Assembly: GCA_964187785.1 (NCBI GenBank)
Contig: OZ076409.1
Coordinates: forward strand, 71,240,001-71,304,000
Source: Amphiscolops sp. MND2022
Lineage: Eukaryota
Length of the DNA: 64,000 nt
Direction of reading: 5' to 3'
The notes under the pieces are model-generated. The model saw nothing but the letters and a program-made list of their open reading frames with translations. It was not told where the DNA came from and made no database searches. Positions 1 through 44,847 of the stretch are shown here, piece by piece. The number at the start of each line of letters is the position of its first letter. The stretch's first letter is position 1. A program made the translations under genes and the position numbers.

Positions 1-83
1 CAACGCCCCATCGTCCGTGGGCATGCCGAGGCATGCCCTTCGACGACGTATGCCAAATGCCCAGTGCCACGCAGTCTTTCCCC
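1..83 (+). repeat. Partial right end (core and tail) of the preceding unit, same type as the end of unit 84-1366
   Basis: Sequence matches 1284-1366 (caacgccccatcgtccgtgggcatgcc...gcagtctttcccc). Confidence 0.9.
19..38. promoter_or_regulatory. Palindromic 20-mer GGGCATGCCGAGGCATGCCC matching the p53-family response element (representative of 36 copies)
   Basis: 19/20 match to RRRCWWGYYY-RRRCWWGYYY with zero spacer. Binding is not demonstrated. Confidence 0.45.
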
Positions 84-1366
84 GCTAGGTGGCCGTGTCT
101 TTTCGACGTGCTTTTGCATTGAGGAGTGGGTAGGGCCCCGCGACGACCTAGAAGAATTGGATGCTCACCGAAACGTGCAGAATTCTACGAGATCTCATAG
201 TTTGAGCCATACGATTTTTCTGAAATTTGGCATGTGGCCTGGAATTGGTGAGTAGGTAAAACGTGTAGAAAGTAATTTTTCCCAAATTCCACTGTGAGAG
301 GAGATATGGGCAAATAACGGACCCAAAAATGGCAAAAATGCACATTTTTCAACTTTGTCAGCCAATATCTCTTTTCCAGGTGCCCGTAGCGTTCCGCACG
401 TGGACATCAATATTGCTCAGCGCTGTTGGAGGAGTGCGTGGACAAATTTTGGTTTAAATCGGACTTAAACTTGACGAGAAATTAACGGTTTTTTGGGCGT
501 TTCCGGGGTAAATTTTTTAACGGTCCAGCTTATCTTTGCCATTTTTTCGAAAATGTACATGCCTAAAGGCCTCCCCCTGGCCGAATTTACTCCCAGCAAA
601 CCCATTTGGCCCTAAATACGGAGTTTCAGCGTTCCAGCATTCCGGGGCGGAAAGTTGTGGGACTTGGAAAAATTTCAAAATTTTTTCAAAAATTTTTTTC
701 CCGTTTTCCGGGCCCCCAATGAAGGGGAACGAGCCCCCAACCAGTATTTTGAGTGAATTCATGTGGAACGCCCATGTTTGGAGGAGAAAAATGCCGTTTA
801 GAACATCTTTTTATCTTAACTTGACATTGACTTATGACGTTTTGAATGTGATGTTAGGATATATGAAGCATGTTAAAAGTTGAAGTTTTGAGTCTTTATC
901 TCATCGGAAAACCATTGAGATACAAGCAGTTTTGCTAAAAACGATTTTCATTGTAGGTTAGCAGAGTATTAGTACACTTTGATGTCATTTGAGTATATTT
1001 TTCTTCTATATAATAACTGTTTTTATGTATTTATTCCAATTTATCTCATCTTTTAACATCAAGCAGTTGAGTACATTTCATCTCCCTTTCGGGGGAGATG
1101 AGAATGTACTCGCTAAAAACCTAATGCTATGGCGCCAATGTTTGAATGGGAAGTTTTCTATGCTTTGAAAAAAGTTATTTTTAATTACTTGATTTTTTAA
1201 AACAATAATTAACATGAAGTACATTACTTGCTCCTACTACTACCACCATACATCTCTAACGTCAACACGCCCCCTGCTTGCATCAACGCCCCATCGTCCG
1301 TGGGCATGCCGAGGCATGCCCTTCGACGACGTATGCCAAATGCCCAGTGCCACGCAGTCTTTCCCC
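84..1366 (+). mobile_element. Short-class unit, subfamily S1 (1283 bp), putative non-autonomous element
   Basis: Bounded by junctions at 84 and 1367. Shares the aaaggcctccccctggcc...catttggccctaaatacggagtttcagcgttc block and the GAGTACATT hairpin with other short units. Left ~400 bp is distinct. Confidence 0.6.
1069..1111 (+). other. Short-class subterminal hairpin GAGTACATTYCATCYCCC-loop-GGGAGATGAGAATGTACTC (representative)
   Basis: Present in all 8 short units (1069, 16185, 17472, 18748, 20019, 21300, 41295, 44545), starting 298-311 bp before the next junction. Confidence 0.88.
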
Positions 1367-2901
1367 GCTAGGTGCGGGGGGGAAACCCCATCCCTTATCT
1401 TGGAGGATTCGGGTAGGGTCCTGAATCCGAGTTCAGTGCCGCCAGCTCTCAGTAGAAATCTGGGCATTTTTTTGCGATCTCGTGATCTAACCATAGGATT
1501 TTAAAGTTGGAGCGGCCCCCACCAGATTTTCCAAAGTTATTCGCCCCCCACCGGGTTCCAGCGTGATTGAAATATTTTGACGGGGTACACGGGCGACCGT
1601 TAGGGGTCATTTTGGGGGTAAAATTTATAAAAGTTCGCATAACTTTTTTCCTGTTGGTTTAAAACTTTAGGACCCTGCTAAAAGTTTCTTGACCATGTTG
1701 CAGGGGCCCCGGAGGTCCAAACCAAATTTTTCTATCTTGAAGCTATCTCCAAGTACCCCCCCGCCCAAACCGTTATTTTTCCGGAAACGCCGGTTTTTGA
1801 CCCGGAAGGAGTCGTCTGAGCGCGGGGTCGTTAGGTGATGTATTGGGGACGGCCTTGAGACGAAGCGGGGGATATATAGTTTGCCGACCCCAGTTTACCC
1901 CCCGCACGGGAAATGACCGTTATATGAGCGGGAAAAATGCCCCCTCCACGTTTTACCGCTATTTCCGGTGTGAAGGAGTGGGAGTAGCGCGTCGGGTGTT
2001 ATATAACAAAAGTAGGTTTAGACAAGGACCTATCGGAAACATGTAGTTTGGGACCCCCTGGTCCAACCCGTTAGCGGAAAATGGGGCTTCCGCCTCCTTT
2101 TTTTACTGCTAAAACCGTAAAATGGGCATTGAGGGGTAAATATCTCGTGAACGCGTGGAGCAATCGTGTCCATCACTACTACAAGGTTTCATACCCATGA
2201 TATGGTGCCTTCAGGGGGGCAAACAGATTTCCGCTATCTATCACCGTTACCGACTTGGCCCCCCAGCCTAACCGCTATGTGACCGGAAATGTCACTTTTT
2301 GAGCCCAAAGGGTCGGTCCCAGCCGGGGAACGTTAGGTTACTTATTGTAGTACTCAATGAGACGAGTTGGGGGATATAGTTTCAGTCACCCCCCGTTACC
2401 CCTTGGGACCGGAAATGACCGTTATGTGGGTAAAATTGCCATTTTTGTCCTATTTGGAGGGCATTTAGATGCGGAAGGAGTGGTAATAGGTGCTTGGACA
2501 CTATATGATGTAAAAGAGGACGTGATGCGAGCATTCGAAATTAACCGTTATGTTGACCCCTAAGTCCCCCTGGTACCGTAAATGACCGGAAATGGTCTAA
2601 TTTTGTGTTTATTGGGTACAAATGTTTGGTATTTTATGAATTAAAGTACATGGAAGGTGTTTCAAAGGCCTCCAGAAGTGAACATCGTCATGAAACCTTG
2701 TGGGGGGTAACGGTATATAACACCGGAAGTCCAAACCGTTGGTCACAGAATAGGTTTTTTGGTTTCAAAATGTCTTTAGGCGTAGTTTTATGGGTTGAAT
2801 CGTCATAATATCAACTATTACGGACATTTTTCGGAAAAAAAATTTTTTCACATTAGTTTCAGAGACCTCCAATGCTTCAGTCAACATAACCGTTACATTT
2901 T

Positions 2902-2945
2902 GATAGCCTTTCAAGTTGGCCTGGCGTCAACTTGGAAGGGCTATC
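2902..2945 (+). other. Long-class subterminal hairpin GATAGCCTTTCAAGTTGGC-loop-GTCAACTTGGAAGGGCTATC (representative)
   Basis: ~19-bp imperfect stem, nearly invariant in long units, starting ~455 bp before the next junction in the units measured. Confidence 0.85.
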
Positions 2946-3244
2946 CTTCTAAAATCGTTAATCAAGAGTGTTTTTGGGTAGGTATATGTTGCATTAGTAC
3001 CAATTATAGCTTCATCAACAGTTTGCCAACGGCAAAAACGATGTCGTGATAATTCCGTTATAAGAATATTAATTAAAAAATTGTTTACAAAGTTGATTTT
3101 TTTCATTTGAAATGTGTCCTAATGCCACCAAATTGAATAAAATAATAAATGGTATTGACTAAAACTAAATAACATTGAAAAAGAAGATCAACATTTTTAT
3201 TAGGTCTCATTATGGAAGCTGAAACCTCACGTTTTAACTTGATT

Positions 3245-3366
3245 AACGTCAACGCCACATACTTTACATCAACGCCCACCGTCTGTGGGCATGCCGAGGC
3301 ATGCCCTTCGACGACGTATACCAAACAACCTCCATATCTACACCCGATTGCGGTAGCGGCTAGGTG
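3245..3366 (+). other. Representative conserved core (36 copies): two TCAACGCC repeats, palindrome, TTCGACGACGTAT, variable tail, GCTAGGTG
   Basis: The only block conserved in sequence between long and short units. Seen directly at every junction. Confidence 0.92.
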
Positions 3367-6300
3367 CGGGGGGGAAACCCCATCCCTTATCTTGGAGGAT
3401 TCGGGTAGGGTCCTGAATCCGAGTTCAGTGCCGCCAGCTCTCAGTAGAAATCTGGGAAATTTTTTGCGATCTCGTGATCTAACCATAGGATTTTAAAGTT
3501 GGAGCGGCCCCCACCAGATTTTCCAAAGTTATTCGCCCCCCACCGGGTTCCAGCGTGATTGAAATATTTTGTCGGGGTACACGGGCGACCGTTAGGGGTC
3601 ATTTTAGGGGTAAAATTCATATTGGGCCACATAACTTTTTTTCTGTTGATTTAAAACTTTAGGACCCTGCTAAAAGTTTCTTGACCATGTTGCAGGGGCC
3701 CCGGAGGTCCAAACCAAATTTTTCTATCTTGAAGCTATCTCCAAGTACCCCCCCGCCCAAACCGTTATTTTTCCGGAAACGCCGGTTTTTGACCCGGAAG
3801 GAGTCGTCTGAGCGCGGGGTCGTTAGGTGATGTTTTGGGGACGGCCTCGAGACGAAGCGGGGGATATATAGTTTGCCGATCCCAGTTTACCCCCCGCACG
3901 GGAAATGACCGTTATATGAGCGGGAAAAATGCCCCCCTCCACGTTTTACCGCTATTTCCGGTGTGAAGGAGTGGGAGTAGCGCGTCGGGTGTTATATAAC
4001 AAAAGTAGGTTTAGACAAGGACCTATCGAAAACATGTAGTTTGGGACCCCCTGGACCAACCCGTTAGCGAGAAATGGGGCTTCCGCCTCCTTTTTTTACT
4101 GCTAAAACCGTAAAATGGGCATTGAGGGGTAAATATCTCGTGAACGCGTGGAGCAATCGTGTCCATCACTACTACAAGGTTTCATACCCATGATATGGTG
4201 CCTTCAGGGGGGCAAACAGATTTCCGCTATCTATCACCGTTACCGACTTGGCCCCCCAGCCTAACCGCTATGTGACCGGAAATGTCACTTTTTGAGCCCA
4301 AAGGGTCGGTCCCAGACGGGGAACGTTAGGTAACTTATTGTAGTACTCAATGAGACGAGTTGGGGGATATAGTTTCAGTCACCCCCCGTTACCCCTTGGG
4401 ACCGGAAATGACCGTTATGTGGGTAAATTTGCAATTTTTATACTTTTTCAAGTGTATTTAGGTGCGGAAGGAGTGGTAATAGGTGCTTGGACACTATATG
4501 AGGTGAGGGAGGACGTGAGGCGAGCATTCGGAAATAACCGTTATGTTGACCCTAAAGTCCCCCTGGTACCGTAAACGACCGGAAATGGTCAAATTTTGTG
4601 TTTTTAGGGTACAAATGATTAGAATTTTATGGAAAAAAGTACCTGGTCGGTGTTTCAACGGCTTGCAGTAGTGAACATAGTCATGAAACCTTGTGGGGGG
4701 TAACGGTATATAGCACCGGAAGTCCAAACCGTTGGAGACAGGATAGGTATTTTGGTTTTAAAATGCCTATAAGCGTACTTTTGTGGGTTGAATCGTTTCA
4801 ATATCGACTAATTTGGATATTTTTTTGACATTGAAGGTTTTTTCAATAGTTTCAGGGACCTCCAATGCTTCAATCAATATAACCGTTACCTTATGATAGC
4901 CTTTCAAGTTGGCCTGGTGTCAACTTGGAAGGGCTATCCTTCGAAAATCGTAATTCAAGTGTGTTTTTGAGTACGTTTTTATTACTTTAATATCAATTAG
5001 AGCCTAATCATTAGTTTGCCAACGACAAAAACTATGACGTGATGATACCGTTAGTAGAAGAATAGTTAACAATTTGTTGACAAAATTGATTTTTTGCATT
5101 TTAAATGTTTCCTAAATGCCAGGAAAACAATTTATCTAATGAATGGTACTGATTGAACCCAAGTATCATTTGAAAAAAGTTAAACATTGTTTTTTCGTTT
5201 CATTATGGAAGCTGAAACCTCACGTTTTAGGTCACTTAACGTCAACGCCACATACTTTACATCAACGTCCGCCGTCTGTGGGCATGCCGAGGCATGCCCT
5301 TCGACGACGTATACCAATTACATATATATCTACACCCACCCGCGGTAGCAGCTAGGTGCGGGGGGGTAACCCCAATAAATATATTGGAGGATTCGGGTAG
5401 GGTCCTGAATCCGATTTTAACTCTAATAGCTATCGATAGGAAATCTTGCAAAAATTTCGGGATCTCGTGATCTAACCATAGGATTTTAAAGTTGGAGCGG
5501 CCCCCACCAGATTTTCCGAAAATTAGCGCCCCCCACCGGGTTCCATACCCCGGGAAATTTTTTTCTGGCCACACGGGCGACCGTTAGGGGGTCATTTTAG
5601 GGGTAAAATTCATATTGGGCCACATAACTTTTTTTCTGTTGATTTAAAACTTTGGAACCCTGCTAAAAGTTTCTTGACCGTGTTGCAGGGGCCCCGAAGG
5701 TCCAAACCAAATTTTTCTATCTTGAAGCTATCTCCAAGTACCCCCCCGCTCAAACCGTTATTTTTCCGGAAACGCAGGTTTTTGACCCGGAAGGAGTCGT
5801 CTGAGCGCGGGGTCGTTAGGTGATGTATTGGGGACGGCCTTGAGACGAAGTGGGGGACAAGTAGTTTGCCAACCTCAATTTACCCCCCGGACGGGAAATG
5901 ACCGTTATATGAGCGTGAAAAATGCCCCCCTCCACGTTTTACCGCTATTTCCGGTGTGAAGGAGTGGGAGTAGCGCGTCGGGTGTTATATAACAAAAGTA
6001 GGTTTAGACAAGGACCTATCGGAAACATGTAGTTTGGGACACACTGGACCAACCCGTTAGCGGGAAATGGGGCTTCCGCCTCCTTTTTTTAGTGCTAAAA
6101 CCGTAAAATGGGCATTGAGGGGTAAATATCTCGTGAACGCGTGGAGCAATCGTGTCCATCACTACTACAAGGTTTCATACCCATGATATGGTGCCTTCAG
6201 GGGGGCAAACAGATTTCCGCTATCTATCACCGTTACCGACTTGGCCCCCCAGCCTAACCGCTATGTGACCGGAAATGTCACTTTTTGAGCCCAAAGGGTC

Positions 6301-9300
6301 GGTCCCAGCCGGGGAACGTTAGGTAACTTATTGTAGTACTCAATGAGACGAGTTGGGGGATATAGTTTTAGTCACCCCCCGTTACCCCTTGGGACCGGAA
6401 ATGACCGTTATGTGGGTAAAATTGCAATTTTTATACTTTTTCAAGTGTATTTAGGTGCGGAAGGAGTGGTAATAGGTGCTTGGACACTATATGAGGTAAG
6501 GGAGGACGTGAGGCGTGCATTCGGAAATAACCGTTATGTTGACCCTAAAGTCCCCCTGGTACCGTAAACGACCGGAAATGGTCAAATTTTGTGTCTATTG
6601 GGTACAAATGTTTTGTATTTTGTAGATAAAAGTATCTATTAGGTGTTTCGACGGTCTACAGTAGTGAACATAGTCATGAAACCTTGTGGGGGGTAACGGT
6701 ATATAGCACCGGAAGTCAAAACGTTGGAGACAGGATAGGTTTTTTGGTTTTAAAATGTCTTTCGGCGTAATTTTTCCGACTCTTGTGGACTATTTTTAAA
6801 AATTAAAGTTTTTCCATATAGTTTCAGAGACTCCGAAACCTCAACCAACATAACCGTTACCTTATGATAGCCTTTCAAGTTGGCCTGGTGTCAACTTGGA
6901 AGCGCTATCCTTCTGAAATCGTTAATCAAGAGTGTTTTTGGGTAGGTATATATTGCATTAGTACCAATTAGAGCTTCATCAACAGTGTATCAACGACAAA
7001 AACTATGCCGTCATGATTCCGTTATTAGAATCATAGTGAGCAAATTGTTGAAAAAATGGTTTTTTCCATACAAAATGTGTCCTAAATGCCAGGCAACCTA
7101 TTTACCTAACAAATGGTATTAATTGGAATGTTTGTAACAGATTTATAAAAGTTCAAATTGATAATTACATTTCATTATGGAAGCTGAAACGTCATATTTT
7201 AGTTTAATTAACGTCAACGCCACACACTTTACATCAACGCACACCGTCTGTGGGCATGCCGAGGCATGCCCTTCGACGACGTATGACAAATCCATATCAA
7301 ACGACGCCCGTACATCCCGGGCTAGGTGCGGGGGGATAACCCCAACAAATATATTGGAGGATTCGGGTAGGGTCCTGAATCCGATTTTAACTCTAATAGC
7401 TATCGATAGGAAATCTTGCAAAAATTTCGGGATCTCGTGATCTAACCATAGGATTTTAAAGTTGGAGCGGCCCCCACCAGATTTTCCGAAAATTAGCGCC
7501 CCCCACCGGGTTCCAGCGTGATTGAAATATTTTGACGGGGTACACGGGCGACCGTTAGGGGTCATTTTGGGGGTAAAATTTATATCCGGTCGCATAACTT
7601 TTTTTCTGTTGATTTAAAACTTTGGAACCCTGCTAAAAGTTTCTTGACCGTGTTGCAGGGGCCCCGAAGGTCCAAACCAAATTTTTCTATCTTGAAGCTA
7701 TCTCCAAGTACCCCCCCGCTCAAACCGTTATTTTTCCGGAAACGCAGGTTTTTGACCCGGAAGGAGTCGTCTGAGCGCGGGGTCGTTAGGTGATGTATTG
7801 GGGACGGCCTTGAGACGAAGTGGGGGACAAGTAGTTTGCCAACCTCAATTTACCCCCCGGACGGGAAATGACCGTTATATGAGCGTGAAAAATGCCCCCC
7901 TCCACGTTTTACCGCTATTTCCGGTGTGAAGGAGTGGGAGTAGCGCGTCGGGTGTTATATAACAAAAGTAGGTTTAGACAAGGACCTATCGGAAACATGT
8001 AGTTTGAGACCCCCTGGACCAACCCGTTAGCGGGAAATGGGGCTTCCGCCTCCTTTTTTTAGTGCTAAAACCGTAAAATGGGCATTGAGGGGTAAATATC
8101 TCGTGAACGCGTGGAGCAATCGTGTCCATCACTACTACAAGGTTTCATACCCATGATATGGTGCCTTCAGGGGGGCAAACAGATTTCCGCTATCTATCAC
8201 CGTTCCCGACTTGGCCCCCCAGCCTAACCGCTATGTGACCGGAAATGTCACTTTTTGAGCCCAAAGGGTCGGTCCCAGCCGGGGAACGTCAGGTAACTTA
8301 TTGTAGTACTCAATGAGACGAGTTGGGGGATATAGTTTCAGTCACCCCCCGTTACCCCTTGGGACCGGAAATGACCGTTATGTGGGTAAAATTGCAATTT
8401 TTATACTTTTTCAAGTGTATTTAGGTGCGGAAGGAGTGGTAATAGGTGCTTGGACACTATATGAGGTAAGGGAGGACGTGAGGCGAGCATTCGGAAATAA
8501 CCGTTATGTTGACCCTAAAGTCCCCCTGGTACCGTAAACGACCGGAAATGGTCAAATTTTGTGTCTATTGGGTACAAATGTTTTGTATTTTGTAGATAAA
8601 AGTATCTATTAGGTGTTTCGACGGTCTACAGTAGTGAACATAGTCATGAAACCTTGTGGGGGGTAACGGTATATAGCACCGGAAGTCAAACCGTTGGAGA
8701 CAAGATAGGTTTTTTGGTTTTAAAATGTCTTTCGGCGTAATTTTTTCGACTCTTGTGGACTATTTTTAAAAATTAAAGTTTTTCCATATAGTTTCAGAGA
8801 CTCCGAAACCTCAACCAACATAACCGTTACCTTATGATAGCCTTTCAAGTTGGCCTGGTGTCAACTTGGAAGCGCTATCCTTCTGAAATCGTTAATCAAG
8901 AGTGTTTTTGGGTAGGTATATATTGCATTAGTACCAATTAGAGCTTCATCAACAGTGTATCAACGACAAAAACTATGCCGTCATGATTCCGTTATTAGAA
9001 TCATAGTGAGCAAATTGTTGAAAAAAATGGTTTTTTCCATACAAAATGTGTCCTAAATGCCAGGAAACCTATTTACCTAACAAATGGTATTAATTGGAAT
9101 GTTTGTAACAGATTTATAAAAGTTCAAATTGAATATTACATTTCATTATGGAAGCTGAAACGTCATATTTTAGTTTAATTAACGTCAACGCCACACACTT
9201 TACATCAACGCACACCGTCTGTGGGCATGCCGAGGCATGCCCTTCGACGACGTATGACAAATCCTTATCAAACGACGCCCGTACATCCCGGGCTAGGTGC

Positions 9301-15207: not shown

Positions 15208-16493
15208 GCTAGGTGGCCGGAAATTTTTTTTTCAGCAAAATCTTTGCCATTGGGGGAGGGGCCCCGGATGGCCAGTAGTACGGGATAGCTTCCTACCAAA
15301 TCCAGGCGGAAAAAACGTGATTTCGGAAACTAGCCGTCAGAATTTGCTCAAATTTTGCATACGGCTTCCTATAACAATCCTAAGAACTAATCCCTACTGG
15401 CATTTTGCCCAAAAAACGCAAAAAGTTGGTCAAAATCTTAGTTTTTTGGTCAAAAAATGGCAATTTTTCGAAAAAATTTTTTTTCAGAGACAATTACTCG
15501 TAACTGGTTCACCCAGCGCAAAAACGCCTAGCTGATTTATTGTTGGGCACTTCATGAGGAGTGCGTATACAAATTTTCGTCCAGATCGGAAAAAAAATGA
15601 CTAAGTATTAGCCGGAATTCGGACGCATTTTTTCGCAAATTTTTGAAAACCTAGTCTATCTCTGCCGTTTTTTGCCCAGATTTTTTTCCAGGTCCTCTCC
15701 TAAAGGCCTCCCCTGGCCGGTTTACTTCCCAGAAAAACCATTTGGCCCTAAATACGGAGTTTCAGCGTTCTAGCATTCCCGGGCGAAAAGATGTGGGACT
15801 TAGAAAAAATTCAAAATTTTTCAAAAAATTTTTTTTTCGTTTTCCGGCCCCCCAATGAAGGGGAACGACCCCCAACGAGGATTTTTGGTGAATTCACGTG
15901 GAAAGGCCTTGTTTTGTGGAGAAAATTGCCGTTTAGAGCGACTTTTTATCTTAACTTGACGTTGACCTCTGTCGTTTTGAATTTGATATTAGTATGTGTT
16001 GAGCATGTGAAAAGTTGATGATTTCAGTTGTTCTCTCGTGTTCAAGCCATTGAGATACAAGCGGTAGTGATCAAAATGTGATTTATCGCAATTTGGTGGT
16101 GCTTTTGGTGTATTTTGATTCTTTTAAATAAAAAGTTGTTCTTTATATATTTGGTGTATTGATTCAAATTAACAAGAAACAGTTGAGTACATTTCATCTC
16201 CCCCCTTGTGGGGGAGATGAGGATGTACCCGCTAAATGACACGCACAATGGCCCAATTTTATTTTTATGCGACGTTCTCTAGGCTTTTGCGCAAGCCCAC
16301 TAATATTTAGACTGGTTTCCTTTTCTTTTACTCCAAAATTTTCCGTACTAACCACCTTACGCACCACCAGCTCAACGTAACATCTCTAACGTCAACGCCA
16401 CACACTCTCACTAACGCCCACCGTCCGTGGGCATGCCGAGGCATGCCCTTCGACGACGTATGCCAAATAGCGCCACAGGGCGCAAACATTCCC
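15208..16493 (+). mobile_element. Short-class unit, subfamily S2 (1286 bp)
   Basis: Starts GCTAGGTGGCCGGAAATT. Divergent left half. Carries the shared central block (~15700-15800) and the GAGTACATT hairpin at 16185. Confidence 0.6.
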
Positions 16494-33600: not shown

Positions 33601-36600
33601 GTCCCCCTGGTACCGTAAACGACCGGAAATGGTCAAATTTTTTGTCTATTGGTTACAAATGTTTAGTATTTTGTAGATAAAAGTATCTATTAGGTGTTTC
33701 GACGGTCTGCAATAGTGAACATAGTCATGAAACCTTGTGGGGGGTAACGGTATATAGCACCGGAAGTCCAAACCGTTGGAGACAGGATGAGTTTTTTGGT
33801 TTTAAAATGTCTTTCGGTGTTCCTTTGTCGACTATTAAGGACTATTTTTAAAAATTAAAGTTTTTCCATATAGTTTCAGAGACTCCGAAACCTCAACCAA
33901 CATAACCGTTACATTTTGATAGCCTTTCAAGTTGGCCTGGTGTCAACTTGGAAGCGCTATCCTTCTGAAATCGTTAATCAAGAGTGTTTTTGGGTAGGTA
34001 TATATTGCATTAGTACCAATTAGAGCTTCATCAACAGTGTATCAACGACAAAAACTATGCCGTCATGATTCCGTTATTAGAATCATAGTGAGCAAATTGT
34101 TGAAAAAAATGGTTTTTTCCATACAAAATGTGTCCTAAATGCCAGGAAACCTATTTACCTAACAAATGGTATTAATTGGAATGTATGTAACAGATTTATA
34201 AAAGTTCAAATTGAATATTACATTTCATTATGGAAGCTGAAACGTCATATTTTAGTTTAATTAACGTCAACGCCACACACTTTACATCAACGCACACCGT
34301 CTGTGGGCATGCCGAGGCATGCCCTTCGACGACGTATGACAAATCCATATCAAACGACGCCCGTACATCCCGGGCTAGGTGCGGGGGGGAAACCCCAACA
34401 AAATTTTTGGAGGATTCGGGTAGGGTCCTGAATCCGAGTTCAGTGCTGCCAGCTTTCGTTAAGAAAATTTGGATAGGATTCGGGATCTCGTGATCTAACC
34501 ATAGGATTTTAAAGTTGGAGCGGCCCCCACCAGATTTTCCGAAAATTAGCGCCCCCCACCGGGTTCCATACCCCGGAAAATTTTTTTCTGGCCACACGGG
34601 CGACCGTTAGGGGGTCATTTTAGGGGTAAAATTCATATTGGACCACATAACTTTTTTTCTGTTGATTTAAAACTTTGGGACCCTGCTAAAAGTTTCTTGA
34701 CCGTGTTGCAAGGGCTCCGGAGGTCCAAACCAAATTTTTCTAGCTTGAAGCTATCTCCAAGTACCCCCCCGCCCAAAACGTTATTTTTCCGGAAATGCAG
34801 GTTTTTGACCCGGAAGGAGTCGTCTGAGAGCGGGGTCGTTAGGTGATGTATTGGGGACGGCCTTGAGACGAAGCGGGGGACATGTAATTTGCCGACCCCA
34901 GTTTACCCCCCGGACAGGAAATGACCGTTATATGAGCGGGAAAAATGCCCCCCTCTACGTTTTACCGCTATTTCCGGTGTGAAGGAGTGGGAGTAGCGCG
35001 TCGGGTGTTATATAACAAAAGTAGGTTTAGACAAGGACCTATCGGAAACATGTAGTTTGGGACCCCCTGGACCAACCCGTTAGCGGGAAATGGGGCTTCC
35101 GCCTCCTTTTTTTACTGCTAAAACCGTAAAATGGTCATTGAGGGGTAAATATCTCGTGAACGCGTGGAGCAATCGTGTCCATCACTACTACAAGGTTTCA
35201 TACCTATGATATGGTGCCTTCAGGGGGGCAAACAGATTTCCGCTATCTATCGCCGTTACCGACTTGGCCCCCCAGCCTAACCGCTATGTGACCGGAAATG
35301 TCACTTTTTGAGCCCAAAGGGTCGGTCCCAGCCGGGGAACGTTAGGTAACTTATTGTAGTACTCATTGAGACGAGTTGGGGGATATAGTTTCAGTCACCC
35401 CCGTTACCCCTTAGGACCGGAAATGACCGTTATGTGGGTAAATTTGCAATTTTTGAACTTTTTGAAGGGCATTTAGATGCGGAAGGAGTGGTAATAGGTG
35501 CTTGGACACTAAATGAAGGAAGGGAGGACGTGAGGCGAGCATTCGGAAATAACCGTTATGTTGACCCTAAAGTCTCCCTGGTACCGGAAGTGACCGGAAA
35601 TTGTCAAATTTGGTGTTTTTAGGGTACAAATGTTCGGTGTTTTATGGATTAAAGTACAGGTTAGGTGTTTTCACGGTCTGCAGTAGTGAACATAGTCATG
35701 AAAACTTGTGGGGGGTAACGGTATATAGCACCGGAAGTCCAAACCGTTGGAGACAGGATAAGTTTTTTGGTTTTAAAATGTCTTTCGGCCTACTTTTGTT
35801 GACTATTATGGACTATTTTTGGAAAATAAAGTTTTTCCAAATAGTTTCAGAGACTCCGAAACCTCAACCAACATAACCGTTACCTTATGATAGCCTTTCA
35901 AGTTGGCCTGGTGTCAACTTGGAAGGGCTATCCTTCAAAAATCATTAATCAAGTGTGTTTTTGAATTTGTTTGTATTACTTTAGAATCAATTAGAGCTTC
36001 AAGAAAAGATTGCCAACGACAAAAACTATGTCGTTATGATTCCGTTATTGGAATAATAGTTAACAAAATATTGATAAAGTTGATTTTTTACATTTTAAAT
36101 GTGTTCTAAATGCCAGAAAACCTCTTTACCAAACAAACGGAATTGATTGAATTGTATATAGAAGCTAATAAAAGTTCAAATTGAATATTACATTTCATTA
36201 TGCAAGCTGAAACGTCAAATTATAGTTTAATTAACGTCAACGCCACATACTTTACATCAACGCCCACCGTCCGTAGGCATGCCGAGGCATGCCTTTCGAC
36301 GACGTATACCAAATTCCACCCACACAACACCCTCGAGCGCGGTAGCAGCTAGGTGCGGGGGGGAAACCCCAACAAAATTTTTGGAGGATTCGGGTAGGGT
36401 CCTGAATCCGAGTTCAGTGCTGCCAGCTTTCGTTAAGAAAATTTGGATAGGATTCGGGATCTCGTGATCTAACCATAGGATTTTAAAGTTGGAGCGGCCC
36501 CCACCAGATTTTCCGAAAATTAGCGCCCCCCACCGGGTTCCATACCCCGGAAAATTTTTTTCTGGCCACACGGGCGACCGTTAGGGGGTCATTTTAGGGG

Positions 36601-39600
36601 TAAAATTCATATTGGGCCACATAACTTTTTTTCTGTTGATTTAAAACTTTGGGACCCTGCTAAAAGTTTCTTGACCGTGTTGCAGGGGCCCCGGAGGTCC
36701 AAACCAAATTTTTCTATCTTGAAGCTATCTCCAAGTACCCCCCCGCCCAAAACGTTATTTTTCCGGAAACGCAGGTTTTTGACCCGGAAGGAGTCGTCGG
36801 AGCGCGGGGTCGTTAGGTGATGTATTGGGGACGGCCTTGAGACGAAGTGGGGGACATGCAGTTTGCCGACCCCAGTTTACCCCCCGGACGGGAAATGACC
36901 GTTATATGAGCGGGAAAAAAGCCCCCCTCCACGTTTTACCGCTATTTCCGGTGTGAAGGAGTGGGAGTAGCGCGTCGGGTGCCATATATCAAAAGTAGGT
37001 TTAAACAAGGACCTATCGGAAACATGTGGTTTGGGACCCCCTGGACCAACCCGTTAGCAGGAAATGGGGCTTCCGGCCCGTTTTTTTACGGTTAAAAACG
37101 GAAAATGGGCATTGAGGGGTAAATATCTCGTGAACGCGTGGAGCTACGGTGTCCATCACTACTTCAAGGTTTCATACCCATGATATGGTGCCTTCAGGGG
37201 GGCAAACAGATTTCCGCTATCTATCACCGTTACGGACTTGGCCCCCAGCCTAACCGTTAAGTGACCGGAAATGTCATATTTTGAGCCCAAAGGGTCGGTC
37301 TCAGCCAGGGAACGTTAGGTAACTTATTGTAGTACTCATTGAGACGAGTTGGGGGACATAGTTTCAGTCACCCCCCGTTACCCCTTGGGACCGGAAATGA
37401 CCGTTATGTGAGTAAAATTGCAATTTTTGTACTTTTTGAAGGGTATTTAGGTGTGGAAGGAGTGGTAATAGGTGCTTGGACACTATATGAGGTAAGGGAG
37501 GACGTGAGGCGAGCATTCGGACATAACCGTTATGTTGACCCTAAAGTCCCCCTTGTACCGTAAACGACCGGAAATGGTCAAATTTTGTATTTTTAGGGTA
37601 CAAATGTTTGGTATTTTATGGAATAAAGTACATGGAAGGTGTTTCAAAGGCATCCAGAAATGAACATAGTCATGAAACCTTGAGGGGGGTAACGGTATAT
37701 AACACCGGAAGTCCAAGCCGTTGGACACAGTATAGGTTTTTGGGTTTTAAAATGCTTATGAACGTACATTTGTGGGTTGAATTGTTCTAATATTGACTAT
37801 TTTCGATATTTTTTGACATTAAAGGTTTTTCCAATAGTTTCAGGGACCTCCAAAGCTTCAATCAACATAACCTTTACATTATGGTAGCCTTTCAAGTTGG
37901 CCTGGTGTCAACTTGGAAGGGCTATCCTTCACAAATCGTATATCAAGTGTGTTTTTGAGTAGGTTTTTATCACTTTAGTATCAATTAGAGCTTAATCATT
38001 AGTTTGCCAACGACAAAAACCATGTCGTGATGATTCCGTTAGTAGAAGAATAGTTAACAACTTGTTGACAAAGTTGATTTTTTGCATTTAAAATGTTTCC
38101 TAAATGCCAGGAAAACGATTTACGTTATAAATGGTACTGATTGACCCAAATAACAGTTAAAAAAAAGTTAAACATTATTTTTTCGTTTCATTATAGAAGC
38201 TGAAACCTCACGTTTTAACTTAATTAACGTCAACGCCACATACTTTACATCAACGCCCACCGTCCGTAGGCATGCCGAGGCATGCCTTTCGACGACGTAT
38301 ACCAAAATCCAATATATCTACACCCACCCGCGGTAGCAGCTAGGTGCGGGGGGAAACCCCAACAAAATTTTTGGAGGATTCGGGTAGGGTCCTGAATCCG
38401 AGTTCAGTGCTGCCAGCTTTCGTTAAGAAAATTTGGATAGGATTCGGGATCTCGTGATCTAACCATAGGATTTTAAAGTTGGAGCGGCCCCCACCAGATT
38501 TTCCGAAAATTAGCGCCCCCCACCGGGTTCCATACCCCGGAAAATTTTTTTCTGGCCACACGGGCGACCGTTAGGGGGTCATTTTAGGGGTAAAATTCAT
38601 ATTGGGCCACATAACTTTTTTTCTGTTGATTTAAAACTTTGGGACCCTGCTAAAAGTTTCTTGACCGTGTTGCAAGGGCTCCGGAGGTCCAAACCAAATT
38701 TTTCTATCTTGAAGCTATCTCCAAGTACCCCCCGCCCAAAACGTTATTTTTCCGGAAACGCAGGTTTTTGACCCGGAAGGAGTCGTCGGAGCGCGGGGTC
38801 GTTAGGTGATGTATTGGGGACGGCATTGAGACGAAGTGGGGGACATGCAGTTTGCCAACCCCAGTTTACCCCCCGGACGGGAAATGACCGTTATATGAGC
38901 GGCAAAAATGTCCCCCTCCACGTTTTACCGCTATTTCCGGTGTGAAGGAATGGGAGTAGCGCGTCGGGTGCCATATATCAAAAGTAGGTTTAGACAAGGA
39001 TCTATCGGAAACATGTGGTTTGGGACCCCCTAGACCAACCCGTTAGCAGGAAATGGGGCTTCCGGCCCGTTTTTTTACGGTTAAAAACGGAAAATGGGCA
39101 TTGAGGGGTAAATATCTCGTGAACGCGTGGAGCTACGGTGTCCTTCACTACTTCAAGGTTTCATACCCATGATATGGTGCCTTCAGGGGGGCAAACAGAT
39201 TTCCGCTATCTATCACCGTTACGGACTTGGCCCCCCAGCCTAACCGTTAAGTGACCGGAAATGTCATATTTTGAGCCCAAAGGGTCGGTCCCAGCCAGGG
39301 AACGTTAGGTAACTTATTGTAGTACTCATTGAGACGAGTTGGGGGACATAGTTTCAGTCACCCCCCGTTACCCCTTGGGACCGGAAATGACCGTTATGTG
39401 AGTAAATTTGCCATTTTTGTCCTATTTGAAGGGCATTTAGACGCGGAAGGAGTGGTAACAGGTGCTTGGACACTATATGAGGTAAGGGAGGACGTGAGGC
39501 GAGCATTCGGACATAACCGTTATGTTGACCCTAAAGTCCCCCTGGTACCGTAAACGACCGGAAATGGTCAAATTTTGTATTTTTAGGGTACAAATGTTTG

Positions 39601-40325
39601 GTATTTTATGGAATAAAGTACATGGAAGGTGTTTTAAAGGCATCCAGAAATGAACATAGTCATGAAACCTTGAGGGGGGTAACGGTATATAACACCGGAA
39701 GTCCAAGCCGTTGGACACAGTATAGGTTTTTGGGTTTTAAAATGCTTATGAACGTACATTTGTGGGTTGAATTGTTCTAATATTGACTTTTTTCGATATT
39801 TTTTGACATTAAAGGTTTTTCCAATAGTTTCACGGACCTCCAAAGCTTCAATCAACATAACCTTTACATTATGATAGCCTTTCAAGTTGGCCTGGTGTCA
39901 ACTTGGAAGGGCTATCCTTCACAAATCGTATATCAAGTGTGTTTTTGAGTAGGTTTTTATCACTTTAGTATCAATTAGAGCTTAATCATTAGTTTGCCAA
40001 CGACAAAAACCATGTCGTGATGATTCCGTTAGTAGAAGAATAGTTAACAACTTGTTGACAAAGTTGATTTTTTGCATTTAAAATGTTTCCTAAATGCCAG
40101 GAAAACGATTTACGTTATAAATGGTACTGCTTGACCCAAATAACAGTTAAAAAAAGTTAAAAATTATTTTTTCGTTTCATTATAGAAGCTGAAACCTCAC
40201 GTTTTAACTTAATTAACGTCAACGCCACATACTTTACATCAACGCCCACCGTCTGTGGGCATGCCGAGGCATGCCCTTCGACGACGTATACCAAATACAT
40301 ACCTAACGACGCCCGTACATCCCGG
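21611..40325 (+). repeat. Ten long-class units, including one deleted copy
   Basis: Junction spacing 1969-1994 bp, except 878 bp for 29530-30407. Confidence 0.95.
29530..30407 (+). repeat. Internally deleted long-class unit (878 bp)
   Basis: Left end ...ttggaggattcggg (29576) joins through 'at' to tgaggagagcattcggg, which normally lies ~1.1 kb further in. Confidence 0.93.
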
Positions 40326-41597
40326 GCTAGGTGCCCGGATTTCTATTCATTAAAGTATGTTGCGCGTGTGGGTAGGGCCCCGTGGCGCGCTCTTGTGTCC
40401 CTGTTCTAAAATCTGTAATTTCCGGCAGCATTCTGAGCGATTTTCTAAACTATCCATACGATTCGGCTGAAATTTGGCACACGTACTCCCCTCGGCACGG
40501 TGAAGATGATTTGCTACTGACGTTTTTCCCGCAAAATTTTTTTTGTTGTCCAAAATAACGGTTTTTGGGGTAAAATTTTGAACTTTTTTTAAATTTCATC
40601 TTATATCTCGCCACGGGTTTACGCTAGCGCTTCAAAACCCTGCTAAAGAAAGCTTGCAAACTGTCTCAGGAATGCGGTGTGAAATTTTTAGCTCAATCGG
40701 ACTTAAACTCAGGGAGATATAGCGTTTTTCCGGAGCGGGGGGGTTTCATTTTTCTAACGGTCCAGCTTATCTTTGCCATTTTTTCGAAAATGCACTCGCC
40801 TAAAGGCCTCCCCTGGCCGGTTTTATCCCCAGCAAAACCATTTGGCCCTAAATACGGAGTTTCAGCGTTCCGGCATTCCCGGGCGAAAAGTTGTGGGACT
40901 TGGAAAATTTCAAAAATTTTCAAAAAAATTTTTTACCGTTATTTGGGCCCCCAAAGTGGGGGAAAAGACCCCCCAACCAGGAAAGCAAGTGAATGCATGT
41001 GGAAAGCCCTTGTTTAGACGAGAAAAATGGCGTTTAGAACGTTTTTTTATCTAAACTTGACATTGACTTTTGTCGTTTTGAAGGTGACCGTTAGATACAG
41101 AAAATTGATATTTTGAGTATTTATCCCATCTGAAAGCCATTGAGATACAACATGTTTTGCTCAAAACGTGTTTCATTGCAGTTTGGCTGTCCATTAACAC
41201 CCTTTGGTGTCTTTTGACGTAATTTTCTTTTCTATAATAACAATTTTTTTGTGTATTTATTCATTTTTTTCTCATCAAATAACTTGAAACAGTTGAGTAC
41301 ATTCCATCTCCCTTCCCGGGGGAGATGAGAATGTACTCGCTAAAGGTCAGGAAATACGATCTAAATCTTCCACAACACAAAAGGGATTGCAAATTGTTTC
41401 AGTTTGTCGCAGAAAACTTCTTTTTGCACTCTGTGACTCGACAAAGTGAACGTTTCTTACTTACTTTGAATCTCACCTTACCACAACTCATCTCTAACGT
41501 CAGCGCCCCCCTACTTGCATCAACGCCCCCCGTCCGTGGGCATGCCGAGGCATGCCCTTCGACGACGTATAGCAAAATATATTCGAACGCGGTAGCC
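40326..41597 (+). mobile_element. Isolated short-class unit, S3-related (1272 bp)
   Basis: Similar to the units at 16494-21610, with a distinct first ~110 bp. Flanked by long units at exact junctions. Confidence 0.6.
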
Positions 41598-43568
41598 GCT
41601 AGGTGCGGGGGGGTAACCCCAACAAATATATTGGAGGATTCGGGTAGGGTCCTGAATCCGATTTTAACTCTAATAGCTATCGATAGGAAATCGTGCAAAA
41701 ATTTCGGGATCTCGTGATCTAACCATAGGATTTTAAAGTTGGAGCGGCCCCCACCAGATTTTCCAAAGTTATTCGCCCCCCACCGGGTTCCAGCGTGATT
41801 GAAATATTTTGACGGGGTACACGGGCGACCGTTAGGGGTCATTTTGGGGGTAAAATTTATATCCGGTCGCATAACTTTTTTCCTGTTGGATTAAAACTTT
41901 GGGACCCTGCTAAAAGTTTCTTGACCGTGTTGCGGGGGCTCCGGAGGTCCAAACCAAATTTTTCTATCTTGAAGCTATCTCCAAGTACCCCCCCGCCCAA
42001 ACCGTTATTTTTCCGGAAACGCAGGTTTTTGACCCGGAAGGAGTCGTCTGAGCGCGGGGTCGTTAGGTGATGTATTGGGGACGGCCTTGAGACGAAGCGG
42101 GGGATATATAGTTTGCCGACCCCAGTTCACCTCCCGGACGGGAAATGACCGTTATATGAGCGGGAAAAATGCCCCCCTCCACGTTTTACCGCTATTTCCG
42201 GTGTGAAGGAGTGGGAGTAGCGCTTCGGGAGCCATATATCAAAAATAAGTTTAGACAAGGACCTATCGGAAACATGTAGTTTGGGACCCCCTGGACCAAC
42301 CCGTTAGCGGGAAATGGGGCTTCCGCCTCCTTTTTTTACTGCTAAAACCGTAAAATGGGCATTGAGGGGTAAATATCTCGTGAACGCGTGGAGCAATCGT
42401 GTCCATCACTACTACAAGGTTTCATACCCATGATATGGTGCCTTCAGGGGGGCAAACAGATTTCCGCTATCTATCACCGTTACCGACTTGGCCCCCCAGC
42501 CTAACCGCTATGTGACCGGAAATGTCACTTTTTGGGCCCAAAGGGTCGGTCCCAGCCGGGGAACGGTAGGTAACTTATTGTAGTACTCAATGAGACGAGA
42601 TGGGGGACATAGTTTCAGTCACCCCCCGTTACCCCTTGGGACCGGAAATGACCGTTATGAGGGTAAATTTGCATTTTTTATACTCTTTGAAGTGCATTTT
42701 TGTGCGGGAGGAGTGGTAATAGGTGCTTGGACACTATATGAGGTAAGGGAGGACGTGAGGCGAACATTCGGAAATAACCGTTATGTTGACCCTAAAGTAC
42801 CCCTGGTACCGTAAACGACCGGAAATGGTCAAATTTTGCGTCTATTGGGTACAAATGTTTGGTATTTTGTAGATAAAAGTATTATTAGGTGTTTCGACGG
42901 TCTGCAGTAGTGAACGTAGTCATGAAACCTTGTGGGGGGTAACGGTATATAGCACCGGAAGTCCAAACCGTTGGACACAGGATATGTTTTTGGTTTGAAA
43001 AGGTCTTTCGGTGTACTTTTGTCGACTATTATGGACTATGTTTAAAAATTACAGTTTTTCCATATAGTTTCAGAGACTCCGAAACCTCAATCAACATAAC
43101 CGTTACCTTTCGATAGCCTTTCAAGTTGGCCTGGTGTCAACTTGGAAGCGCTATCCTTCTAAAATCGTTATTCAAGAGTGTTTTTGGGTAGGTATATTTT
43201 GCATTAGTACCAATTAGAGCTTCATCAACAGTGTATCAACGACAAAAACTAAGCCGTCATGATTCCGTTATTAGAATAATAGTGAGCTAATTGTTGACAA
43301 AAATAATTTTTTCCATACAAAATGTGTCCTAAATGCCAGGAAACCTATTTACCTAACAAATGGTATTGATTGGAATGTATGTAACAGATTTATAAAAATT
43401 CAAATTGAATATTACGTTTCATTATGGAAGCTGAAACGTCATATTTCAGTTTAATTAACGTCCACGCCACATACTTTACATCAACGCCCACCGTCTGTGG
43501 GCATGCCGAGGCATGCCCTTCGACGACGTATACCAAATACATACCCAAACGACGCCCGTACATCCCGG
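41598..43568 (+). repeat. Single long-class unit (1971 bp) between two short units
   Basis: Typical long-class body between junctions 41598 and 43569. Confidence 0.95.
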
Positions 43569-44847
43569 GCTAGGTGCCGGGATTTCTATTCGATAAAGTA
43601 AGTTGCGCGGTTGGGTAGGGCCCCGTGAGCGCGCCCGTGTCTGTGTTTTTTGAACCTGAATTTGCGGGTGCCAAAATAGACGATTTCCTAAACTATCCAT
43701 ACGATTTTGCTCAAATTTGGCATACGGGTTCCTGAGACAGATATAAGAACTAATTCCTACTGGCGTTTTGCCCGGAAAATTTTTTTTGTTGCGCAAACTT
43801 GAAATTTTTGACAAAAAAATGCGATTTTTTTTGAAAATTTTTTTTTGAGAGGCCATATCTTTTTTCAGGGAGCCCGGAGCGGGACGCGTTAAACTGATTA
43901 TAAACTCTACGGTTCACGGGCTGTACGGGGAACCTATTTTTGTTGGAATCCGACTTGTAGATTTTGAGATATATTATCAAATTTGGGTGTTTTTTTCCAA
44001 TTTTTCGAAAAACCTGGTTTATCTCTGCCGTTTTTTGCCCAGATTTTTTTCTAGACCCTCTCCTAAAGGCCTCCCCTGGCCGGATTACGTCCCAGCAAAA
44101 CCATTTGGCCCTAAATACGAAGTTTCAGCGTTCTAGCATTCTCGGGCGAAAAGTTGTGGGACTTAGAAAAATTTTTTTAAAAACGCAAAATGTGTAAAGT
44201 CAACTTCAGGCCTCCCAAAGTCAAGGAACTTCCACACAACTAGGATTACAAGTGGATGCATGTGGAAAGTGCTTGAATAGACGAGGAAAATGAGCTATTA
44301 CAAAACTCTGTAGCTTAACCTGACGTTGACTTATGACAATTTTAGTGTGAGCTTGCTATGTGAGAAAAAATTTCAAAAATTGAAAATCGAAGCTAAGTCT
44401 CATCCAAAACTCATCGGAATACGTTCAATCCATTCCAAAGCGAGTTACTTCCAGCTATAGACTGCAGCAACACTATTCAAGACCATTGTACCCCTTTATA
44501 TTAGTTTTGACATTGTATTATTCATCCGAGAGCACAAAGCAGTTGAGTACATTCCATCTCCCTTTCGGGGGAGATGAGAATGTACTCGCTAAAGAACAGG
44601 TACTACAGCCAATTTTTGTATTTATGCGAAGCCATTCTATGCTATTGCACATAACAACTATGCTATTGACTTAATTTTGCCTACACTTTGCTATGACATA
44701 TGCTAAACGTTTGGTCCTTACAACAACATACACATGACTAACGTCAACACCACATACTGTTACCAACGCCCACCGTCCGTGGGCATGCCGAGGCATGCCC
44801 TTCGACGACGTATGCCAAATACCTTCCAGCGACGCCCGCGCTCCCCG
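43569..44847 (+). mobile_element. Short-class unit, subfamily S4 (1279 bp), most divergent
   Basis: Retains the left-end hairpin, central block (~44060-44170), GAGTACATT hairpin (44545) and core. Intervening sequence is strongly diverged. Confidence 0.6.

Follow-up and report, generated by a model that had tools for sequence, protein, structure and literature searches.

The interior of a non-autonomous transposon is commonly regarded as filler free of constraint. Penelope-like and retrozyme-like elements form head-to-tail arrays, and organellar minicircles combine uniform size and heterogeneous sequence with one conserved region. Rolling-circle elements are described, in the available parts of the accounts, as orientation-specific, as using hairpins and as forming tandem insertions (PMC10288648; PMC5148889). 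Replitrons are recorded from algae, plants and protists, and their RG target is not general within the group, again according to the available part of the source (PMC10288648). The sites of tyrosine recombinases typically consist of a 6-8-bp core with flanking inverted arms of 11-13 bp (PMC3212892, available part), and satellite DNAs with supra-nucleosomal monomers of up to 5 kb are common (10.64898/2026.09.17.752431, available part).

The window analysed here, a stretch of DNA of 64,000 bp, is a single head-to-tail array of non-coding units. Our best overall reading, to which we give a probability of roughly one-half, is that the units are self-targeting, non-autonomous elements that are exchanged at their junctions and whose nucleosome-positioning interiors are kept in helical register.

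Organization of the array

The array fills the window (1..64000, + strand), with 36 junctions and one orientation throughout, and consists of two related size classes of gene-less units, an 878-bp derivative and a third type that is cut by the window end. With unit boundaries set at CTAG|GTG, 5 nt to the right of those in the earlier note, there are 35 complete units: 8 short, 26 long and the one of 878 bp. Their order is one short, seven long, five short, four long, the 878-bp unit, five long, then short, long, short and nine long, followed by the cut-off third type. On the + strand, U01 (short, lineage S1, 1283 bp; 89..1371) is followed by the seven long units U02-U08 (1970-1992 bp; 1372..15212), by U09 (short, lineage S2, 1286 bp; 15213..16498) and by four short units of lineage S3, U10-U13 (1287, 1272, 1270 and 1288 bp; 16499..21615). 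The four long units U14-U17 (21616..29534) precede U18 (878 bp; 29535..30412), and five more long units, U19-U23 (30413..40330), lead to U24 (short, lineage S3, 1272 bp; 40331..41602), U25 (long, 1971 bp; 41603..43573) and U26 (short, lineage S4, 1279 bp; 43574..44852). The nine long units U27-U35 (44853..62680) and the third type, U36 (62681..64000), complete the window. The earlier note's count left out U18 and the cut-off U36 (>1320 bp). U18 is a deletion derivative of a long unit that lacks about positions 43-1151, with its left break in the 5' hairpin loop, and what remains is 99.1% identical to the adjoining U17.

The window contains 20 stop-to-stop frames of 120-163 aa, and the 12 that were scanned against Pfam gave no match. 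Tandem Repeats Finder, with periods up to 500, returned only one trivial 21-bp doublet; no CpG decay is seen (observed/expected 0.97-1.03), and seven units tested have no inverted or direct terminal repeats in common. Word searches of the open-access literature returned no recognised description of the family, which may already be catalogued in Repbase or Dfam. A single sequencing run, X1, contains 15% of the window's words, and no RNA run is among those listed as sharing them; a comparison of X1 with positions 89-3363 yielded 14 contigs containing pieces of both families, three of them at 99% identity or more, and these gave no information on target sites.

The third type, U36, has a short-type 5' segment and the short-type conserved block, with about 700 extra bases between them that carry long-type motifs. 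Its length would project to 1974-2007 bp, within the long class despite the different body. The anatomy of the window's short and long units recurs in a separate metagenome record, L001, in which a short-type unit is joined to a long-type unit at a junction reading AG|GTG; the unit end there is CGAG rather than CTRR. L001 was the one match of the 3' motif among metagenome contigs.

Hairpins and conserved blocks

All families have in common a 3' block of about 85 bp, exemplified at 1257..1341 (+), in which two short direct repeats are followed by a 20-bp palindrome (1302-1321, +). Between the palindrome and the unit end lie 43-58 nt, in which any stems are weak and variable. The outer pair of the palindrome has changed in a compensatory manner, from G-C to A-T, in 4 of the 36 copies and in L001. 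Near the other end of the unit lies a 5' hairpin (example at 1405..1428, +) whose G-rich loop is conserved and whose stem covaries, four of its nine pairs having changed on both sides. The short family also has a conserved block (562..670, +), 89-95% identical across lineages and present in U36 and L001, and an internal hairpin with a one-base 3' bulge located 260-276 nt from the unit end (1069..1111, +). The long-family internal hairpin (2902..2945, +; 416 nt from the unit end as measured in U35) differs from it in sequence and has the same stem-bulge-stem shape. The + strand folds better in nine of ten hairpin windows, and the hairpins keep conserved G-T(U) pairs.

Exchange of units at the junction

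The sequence CTAG|GTG is exact at 36 of 36 junctions, on the + strand only and with no variable bases; an example of this exchange point lies at 1368..1374 (+). The heptamer occurs 36 times in the window, always at a junction, where about four occurrences would be expected by chance. The tail that follows the palindrome tracks the body upstream (Mantel rho 0.56, P=0.0005) and the head tracks the body downstream (rho 0.76, P=0.0005). Across the junction the links are weak (rho 0.10-0.18), and tail to head alone reaches P=0.02. The closest relatives are often far apart, as with U05 and U35 (99.1%), U22 and U33 (98.5%), and U02 and U19 (97.4%). Discrete units are thus almost certainly exchanged at the junction. 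A new unit would land exactly at a resident CTAG|GTG and regenerate the same site, and such precise landing could shuffle different families head to tail. The units are also mosaics of one another, and adjacent units resemble one another slightly more than chance would give (P=0.018; for runs of short and long units, P=0.011), arguing that ordinary recombination and local duplication contribute as well.

Unit lengths and kinship

The starting point was a claim in the earlier note that unit lengths are fixed in spite of strong divergence. The lengths themselves proved exact, at 1283, 1286, 1287, 1272, 1270, 1288, 1272 and 1279 bp for the eight short units and 1967-1996 bp for the 26 intact long units. 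The short units had been called barely alignable, which holds for their 5' third only: among four lineage representatives the mean identity is 57% over columns 1-153 and 51% over columns 154-463, segments that measure 134-139 and 298-308 in these four. Overall, the short lineages align at 70-77% (66-72% under stiffer gap costs) and have common blocks of 89-95% identity. The eight short units constitute four homologous lineages, with five of the eight in one subfamily (85.5-94.5%), and the 26 long units are a single family of 80-99% identity. There are consequently few independent lengths, and to treat them as independent despite divergence was an overstatement. The long lengths are bimodal, with 15 units at 1967-1974 and 11 at 1985-1996, because of one 20-bp indel, a segment (2791..2810, +) present in 11 of the 26 and absent from 15.

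Spacing and helical register

Constraint is evident in the spacing inside the unit. U28, U29 and U31 are deeply diverged over their 5' 500 bp and yet keep the same register as other long units; in this stretch, at 56-74% identity, there are just three 1-bp indels per 500 columns. Between U05 and U28 the first 500 columns contain three one-base indels per 170 differences (P=0.011), and an aligner-free lag scan found register 0 or +1 in each of 13 windows. A single clade takes part in every deep long-unit pair, and these pairs are not independent. Young copies have 13 indels per 159 private substitutions, compared with 25 per 675 shared alleles (Fisher P=0.034). Nine of these 13 indels affect one base only and may include assembly errors, and for indels of at least 2 bp the deficit reaches P=0.076 only. 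The five well-anchored larger indels measure about 10, 11, 11, 20 and 20 bp, and a post hoc test (n=5) for helical multiples gave P 0.001-0.003. The AT-rich segment that precedes the 3' palindrome (227-245 nt), the tails and the -23 step of U26 all lie off the 10-bp ladder and had no part in this test. Offsets among short lineages step by about 10-11 bp, those of U09 against U11 running 0, -10, -20, -30 and back to -10. It is highly probable that a spacing constraint exists inside the units. Active lineages may have been selected to hold motif spacing in helical register, such that deep-branch indels are scarce and, statistically, the larger ones would persist chiefly when they span one or two helical turns.

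The long units also have a coherent AA/TT period of 10.4 bp that stays in phase over about 1.5 kb. All five long units tested beat every one of 500 run-preserving shuffles (for U36, P=0.004), and the best coherent period is 10.38-10.42 in 24 of the 26. In short units the period is weak and inconsistent: one of five passed the shuffle test, and a second analysis put four of five at P<0.05, but with periods from 10.0 to 10.6. Recurrent motifs of long units are not phased at 10.4 (p 0.12-0.87), and a motif lattice at 10.4 bp was not significant in two long units (in U36, p ~0.006, post hoc). A long unit contains an internal duplication in which about 311-640 matches 813-1140 at an offset of 502 (1682..2511, +), with weaker self-matches at lags of 126, 147, 166-178 and 668-669. 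Such degenerate sub-repeats were seen only in long units and U36, and the step of about 700 bp from short to long may amount to about four nucleosome-sized modules.

The spacing constraint, the AA/TT period and the helical-turn indels fit the nucleosome-phasing explanation put forward in the earlier note, and we consider the chance that rotational positioning of nucleosomes causes the constraint to be slightly better than even. In this array the non-coding interior holds its register through 30-45% sequence change, and most of the surviving indels are helical-turn steps, suggesting that such elements spread in part by virtue of their chromatin geometry. The lengths are narrow because each class is one line of descent and, probably, because motif spacing has been selected in active lineages.

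One alternative involves no selection on length at all. Two families by descent would have retained their lengths passively, given a low indel-to-substitution ratio that could come from substitution-prone element replication or from gene conversion that removes indel loops, and the 10.4-bp period would be inherited from an ancestral module. There are just four short lineages and one long family, mosaicism among units is extensive, and the 1.1-kb deletion in U18 persists in the array. Net indel length, which the earlier note proposed to compare with a neutral model, also agrees with this explanation: sign randomisation found compensation at P<0.05 in 0 of 20 pairs, and a neutral simulation with the array's own recent indel spectrum gave P=0.026-0.105, a marginal value, for the spread of short-lineage total length. 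We nonetheless regard it as unlikely, since the register is kept to within one base over 500 columns at 56-74% identity, since young copies do gain indels, including ones of 4, 6 and 7 bp, and since the larger shared indels lie near helical multiples.

Selection on total length, as put forward in the earlier note, is somewhat less likely still. Each circle would have to wrap an integral number of nucleosomes (7 and 11) or match the size of a helper particle in the manner of virus satellites. The offsets of short lineages widen to 30-33 bp in mid-unit and have shrunk to 7-14 bp by the unit end, segment permutation on the lengths gave P=0.008-0.067, and under an assumed heavy-tailed indel law the spread of short lengths is small (P 0.001-0.005). 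U36, a short-type body with about 700 bp added, would join the long class, but this length is projected rather than observed; U09 and U26 have common ancestry, so the compensation may be a single event. The proposed match to 7 and 11 times about 180 bp is uninformative, because 51% of random length pairs fit equally well. No helper, capsid gene or circle was seen in the analysis of the 64-kb window, and the conserved 3' motif had no match in viral contigs. The evidence for selection on whole-unit length (P 0.01-0.1) is marginal. The earlier conclusion that length is under constraint therefore stands for spacing inside the unit, and lengths appear to stay fixed mainly through internal spacing in helical register, not demonstrably through package fit.

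Proposed mobilization of the units

We regard it as an even bet that the units are moved by a putative HUH-type mobiliser. A transposase of this single-strand, rolling-circle kind, acting in trans, would read the terminal hairpins, and movement would pass through a single-strand or circular step. The window showed no transposase, solo copy, empty site or autonomous partner.

Among other mechanisms, tyrosine-recombinase cassettes, Crypton-like or integron-like, would be excised as circles and reintegrated at a 7-bp crossover core. Precision and orientation are both explained by one asymmetric 7-bp site that recurs unchanged at every junction, and Cryptons have terminal direct repeats of 4-6 bp and are proposed, in the available part of the source, to move as circles (PMC3212892). 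The 11-13-bp inverted arms are absent, however: no dyad arms surround the junction, which folds no better (-4.06 kcal/mol) than random tail-head combinations (-4.04 kcal/mol), and covarying hairpins with a strand bias suggest a single-stranded step. Such cassettes are improbable here. It is a little more doubtful that the array represents an unnamed class of gene-less mobile replicons of eukaryotes, in which chromatinised circles of about 1.28- and 1.98-kb classes integrate like cassettes at their own junction only, with whole-unit length and helical register both selected. If that were true, two independent bodies, that of the long family and that of the U36 type, would have converged on 1.98 kb, and the three hairpins would serve as origin, terminator and second-strand or packaging signals for the mobiliser. 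Non-autonomous retroelements that move through RNA, of a Penelope-like or retrozyme-like kind and with hairpins serving as RNA signals, are very unlikely; the conserved G-T(U) pairs, the + strand folding bias and the head-to-tail arrangement are as expected of them, but each of the 36 units starts at the exact position, none is 5'-truncated or A-tailed, and no Rfam family, ribozymes included, reached the gathering threshold in the window (the only match in 1-3500, at E=0.81, is regarded as chance). An assembly artefact, in which minicircles of uniform size were chained by the assembler through a common region, is scarcely credible in spite of the resemblance to organellar minicircles in size, heterogeneity and conserved region, because a chimera would switch inside the common 85-bp block and tie tails to the downstream unit, whereas each tail goes with the unit upstream of it and the switch has just 7 bp in common, and because the independent L001 has the same short-to-long join.

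Comparison with known systems

As junction-exchanged, self-targeting elements, the units are best read as Helitron- or Replitron-like, yet their ends match neither Helitron group. They resemble the HLE1 Helitrons, as these are described in the available parts of the sources (PMC11417382; PMC4067079; PMC5148889), in being non-coding, in lacking a target-site duplication between units, in having a subterminal 3' palindrome and in their same-orientation tandem arrangement. The 3' CTRR of HLE1 is matched by CTAG at 36 of 36 junctions, but not by the CGAG of L001. All 36 array units start with GTG rather than with the 5' TC of HLE1, the HLE1 palindrome of 16-20 nt lies about 11 nt from the 3' end and that of the array much farther in, and HLE1 inserts between A and T without duplication, whereas the array junction is AG|GT. 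Also unlike HLE1, the array has additional hairpins, conserved near the 5' end and internally, and it mixes several families with spacing-constrained interiors. The telomere-associated Helitrons of Paramecium (PMC13085455, available part) gave no match to array units.

Helentrons and HINEs (HLE2), such as Cg_HINE of the Pacific oyster, have central repeats of 140-180 bp (PMC7492417; PMC4067079, available parts). The array likewise has a hairpin near each end and degenerate, nucleosome-sized sub-repeats (lags 147-178, 502 and 669). The 11-15-bp subterminal inverted repeats of HINEs have no counterpart common to the seven array units tested, and no T run that would correspond to their TT or T-rich target occurs at any junction. 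The array also differs in having no microsatellite and in central modules that are old and of constant number rather than variable tandem arrays.

With Replitrons, so far as the available part of the source describes them (PMC10288648), the array has in common orientation specificity, with AG (RG) preceding 36 of 36 units and L001 too, and a hairpin near the right end; the heptamer might be taken for a short direct repeat common to neighbours, comparable to the Replitron terminal direct repeat. Unlike Replitrons, the array has neither fuzzy ends nor variable duplications, and no Rep gene was seen in the window. Cryptons have short terminal direct repeats and a proposed circular excision and integration, as the array might (PMC3212892, available part), and neighbours in KolobokP multimers have an end in common, as array units do (PMC9587614, available part). 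The 7-bp core of the array lacks the inverted arms of the former, the long terminal direct repeats with TIRs of the latter are missing, and no recombinase or transposase was seen in the window. The array has none of the 5' truncations, A-tails or boundary ribozyme of non-LTR and Penelope-like elements. The exact, self-regenerating junction, together with ends unlike those of either Helitron group, points to a putative mobiliser.

Nucleosome-sized satellite DNAs, as the available part of the source presents them, resemble the array in wrapping-compatible length, in internal period and in recombination between units (10.64898/2026.09.17.752431). On an informal look the array has no clear higher-order repeat of the satellite kind, and unlike these satellites it swaps unlike families at a 7-bp site and has covarying hairpins. 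Through a junction of this kind, a mobile element could turn into a satellite with kilobase-sized units.

The array and the kinship of its units

The window is a single array in which a 20-bp palindrome occurs 36 times, followed each time by the heptamer CTAGGTG. This heptamer is found 36 times in all, every time on the + strand and at palindrome-linked sites only, while about 4 copies would be expected by chance. When unit boundaries are set by cutting at CTAG|GTG, the array resolves into 35 complete units (8 short, 26 long and one of 878 bp), followed by one truncated by the window end. The short units measure 1283, 1286, 1287, 1272, 1270, 1288, 1272 and 1279 bp and the 26 long units 1967-1996 bp, reproducing exactly the lengths in the earlier note. 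The units showed no sign of a gene or of known RNA families, and their CpG observed/expected ratio of 0.97-1.03 indicates no depletion, which fits an unmethylated repeat. The 878-bp unit, U18 (29535-30412), carries a 1.1-kb deletion starting exactly at the conserved 5' hairpin loop, and its kept portion is 99.1% identical to its upstream neighbor, U17; where the deletion begins there could be a site of nicking or stalling.

The independent lengths are fewer than the raw unit count suggests. A single subfamily comprises five of the eight short units (85.5-94.5% identity). The four short lineages align at 70-77% (66-72% under stiffer gap costs), coming near the alignment limit in the 5' third only (57% and 51% identity), where the poorly alignable segments still agree in length (134-139 and 298-308). 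All 26 long units belong to a single family (80-99% identity), and the two sub-peaks of this class result from a single 20-bp indel, absent from 15 of them. Short and long units are related; they have in common a 3' block of about 85 bp and a remote similarity across the first ~150 bp. The long units are also mosaic, being composed of pieces of one another. Units U28, U29 and U31 (46827-50813 and 52787-54753) are recombinants that carry a deeply diverged 5' allele on differing 3' halves; identity between U02 and U28 climbs along the unit from 63-69% to 100%, and that between U31 and U29 drops from 100% to 74%.

Constraint on internal register

The constrained property is the register of the unit interior. 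In the first 500 columns of the alignment of two long units, U05 and U28, there are 170 differing sites and three 1-bp indels, at an identity of 56-74% per 100 columns, and all 13 windows of an aligner-free lag scan gave an offset of 0 or +1. Among their private changes, young copies have 13 indels per 159 substitutions; indels are rarer among shared alleles (25 per 675, P=0.034) and in the deep 5' allele (3 per 170 differences, P=0.011). When indels of at least 2 bp alone are counted, the young-versus-shared contrast weakens to P=0.076; some of the single-base events may be errors of assembly.

The data support the helical turn as a finer length quantum. Offsets between short lineages, taken where one lag in a window was clearly the best, shift in steps of about 10-11 bp (0, -10, -20, -30, then -10 for U09 versus U11), and the five well-anchored shared indels of at least 5 bp measure about 10, 11, 11, 20 and 20 bp. 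A post hoc test of these five for helical steps gave P values of 0.001-0.003 under power-law lengths, with the exclusion of the pre-palindrome segment (227-245 nt, poorly alignable), the tails and a -23 step in the short unit U26, all of which are off the ladder. An AA/TT period of 10.4 bp, a mark of nucleosomal or bent DNA, exceeded all 500 shuffles (which preserve A/T tract lengths) in each of the five long units tested, was significant in U36, the truncated unit (P=0.004), and passed in one of five short units. Of the 26 long units, which are related and hence not independent, 24 have their best coherent period at 10.38-10.42; in the short units it varies from 10.0 to 10.6. The GGAA motifs of U36 keep a 10.4-bp phase (post hoc p about 0.006). 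The AA/TT signal would equally arise from intrinsic curvature or from proteins spaced in an array. The nucleosome idea of the earlier note gains partial support, from register and helical-turn spacing; its speculative match of the two sizes to about 7 and 11 times 180 bp is empty, since 51% of random length pairs fit equally.

Evidence for selection on total length is marginal. Sign randomisation for net indel compensation gave P<0.05 in none of 20 pairs (minimum 0.068). Segment permutation among short lineages gave P values of 0.008, 0.031 and 0.067, varying with the representatives chosen, and neutral simulation gave 0.026-0.105 when based on recent indels of the array itself, against 0.001-0.005 when a heavy-tailed spectrum was assumed. 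The third unit type, U36 (62681-64000), starts like a short unit and carries the short-type conserved block; some 700 extra bases of long-type modules lie between these body ends. The window ends before this unit does, and its projected length of 1974-2007 bp would place it in the long class, a hint in favor of the proposed length constraint. It seems unlikely that U36, along with further independent families, has converged as a circle on these two sizes. In a separate metagenome record, L001 (1-1172), a short-type unit adjoins a long-type one, with CGAG|GTG as the junction; its hairpins are those of the window units, and its conserved block lies 747 nt from the unit end, versus 752-780 in the window.

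Exchange at the junction

Units have been exchanged precisely at one site and in a single orientation. The variable tail, from the palindrome to CTAG, tracks the upstream body (rho 0.56, P=0.0005) and the unit head tracks the downstream body (rho 0.76, P=0.0005); correlations across the 7-bp junction are 0.10-0.18, and tail-head alone reaches P=0.02. Homologous exchange or mis-assembly within the shared 85-bp block predicts tails tied to the downstream unit, but the tails follow the upstream body. The closest relatives often lie tens of kilobases apart (U05 and U35, 99.1%). Neighboring units resemble each other slightly more than chance would predict (90.5% vs 88.9%, P=0.018), and the short units are clustered in array order (P=0.011), and therefore some local duplication has also occurred.

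Hairpins and repeated motifs

The 3' palindrome is present in every unit (for example at 1302-1321), with a compensatory outer-pair change in 4 of the 36 copies. The 20-bp palindrome resembles a spacer-less p53-family response element as well; the central mismatch, invariant in all 36 copies, suits a hairpin loop better. Just upstream (1257-1300 and equivalents) lies a pair of short direct repeats at a spacing of about 22 bp, which may be likened to replication-origin iterons. In the 5' hairpin (11 aligned heads), four of nine pairs show double-sided change, and 83% of cells pair, compared to at most 57% in slid controls, a contrast that is not a probability because the sequences are related. 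The 5' hairpin of U36 differs from that of the other units. Short and long units both have an internal stem-bulge-stem hairpin, of unlike sequence. Nine of the 10 hairpin windows, which had been chosen on the + strand, folded better on that strand.

Long units contain an internal duplication at offset 502, with weaker self-matches at lags of 126, 147, 166-178 and 668-669. They also carry (e.g. at 1372-2900) five copies of ACCGGAART and 7-11 copies of ACCGTTA per unit, resembling ETS-type and MYB/OVO-type binding sites, respectively; these repeated motifs could possibly form a germline promoter array.

A possible mechanism and comparison with known systems

The array thus consists of discrete non-coding units with covarying hairpins and interiors kept in register. 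Most likely, a trans-acting single-strand (HUH-type) transposase copies the unit by way of a circle or a single strand, and the copy would then be joined at the junction of a resident unit. Copies in helical register would stay mobile, most simply because of rotational nucleosome positioning, and the short unit could have become the long one by gaining about four nucleosome-sized modules. Rolling-circle elements in general insert in a specific orientation, have hairpins and form tandem copies (PMC10288648 and PMC5148889).

A Crypton-type site requires inverted arms, according to PMC3212892, and these are missing around the junction. A word search of open-access literature found no published description recognisable as this unit family, which may already be catalogued in a repeat database. 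KolobokP multimers (PMC9587614) and large satellites (10.64898/2026.09.17.752431) bear a more distant likeness. The units fall outside both Helitron groups as defined in PMC11417382 and PMC4067079: they lack a 5' TC, an A|T or TT target and subterminal inverted repeats, and their palindrome is too distant from the 3' end. Their modular interior is similar to that of the oyster HINE elements, with central repeats of 140-180 bp (PMC7492417). Like Replitron-1 (PMC10288648), they follow RG in a single orientation, but no Rep was seen. The array units act like a non-autonomous rolling-circle element.
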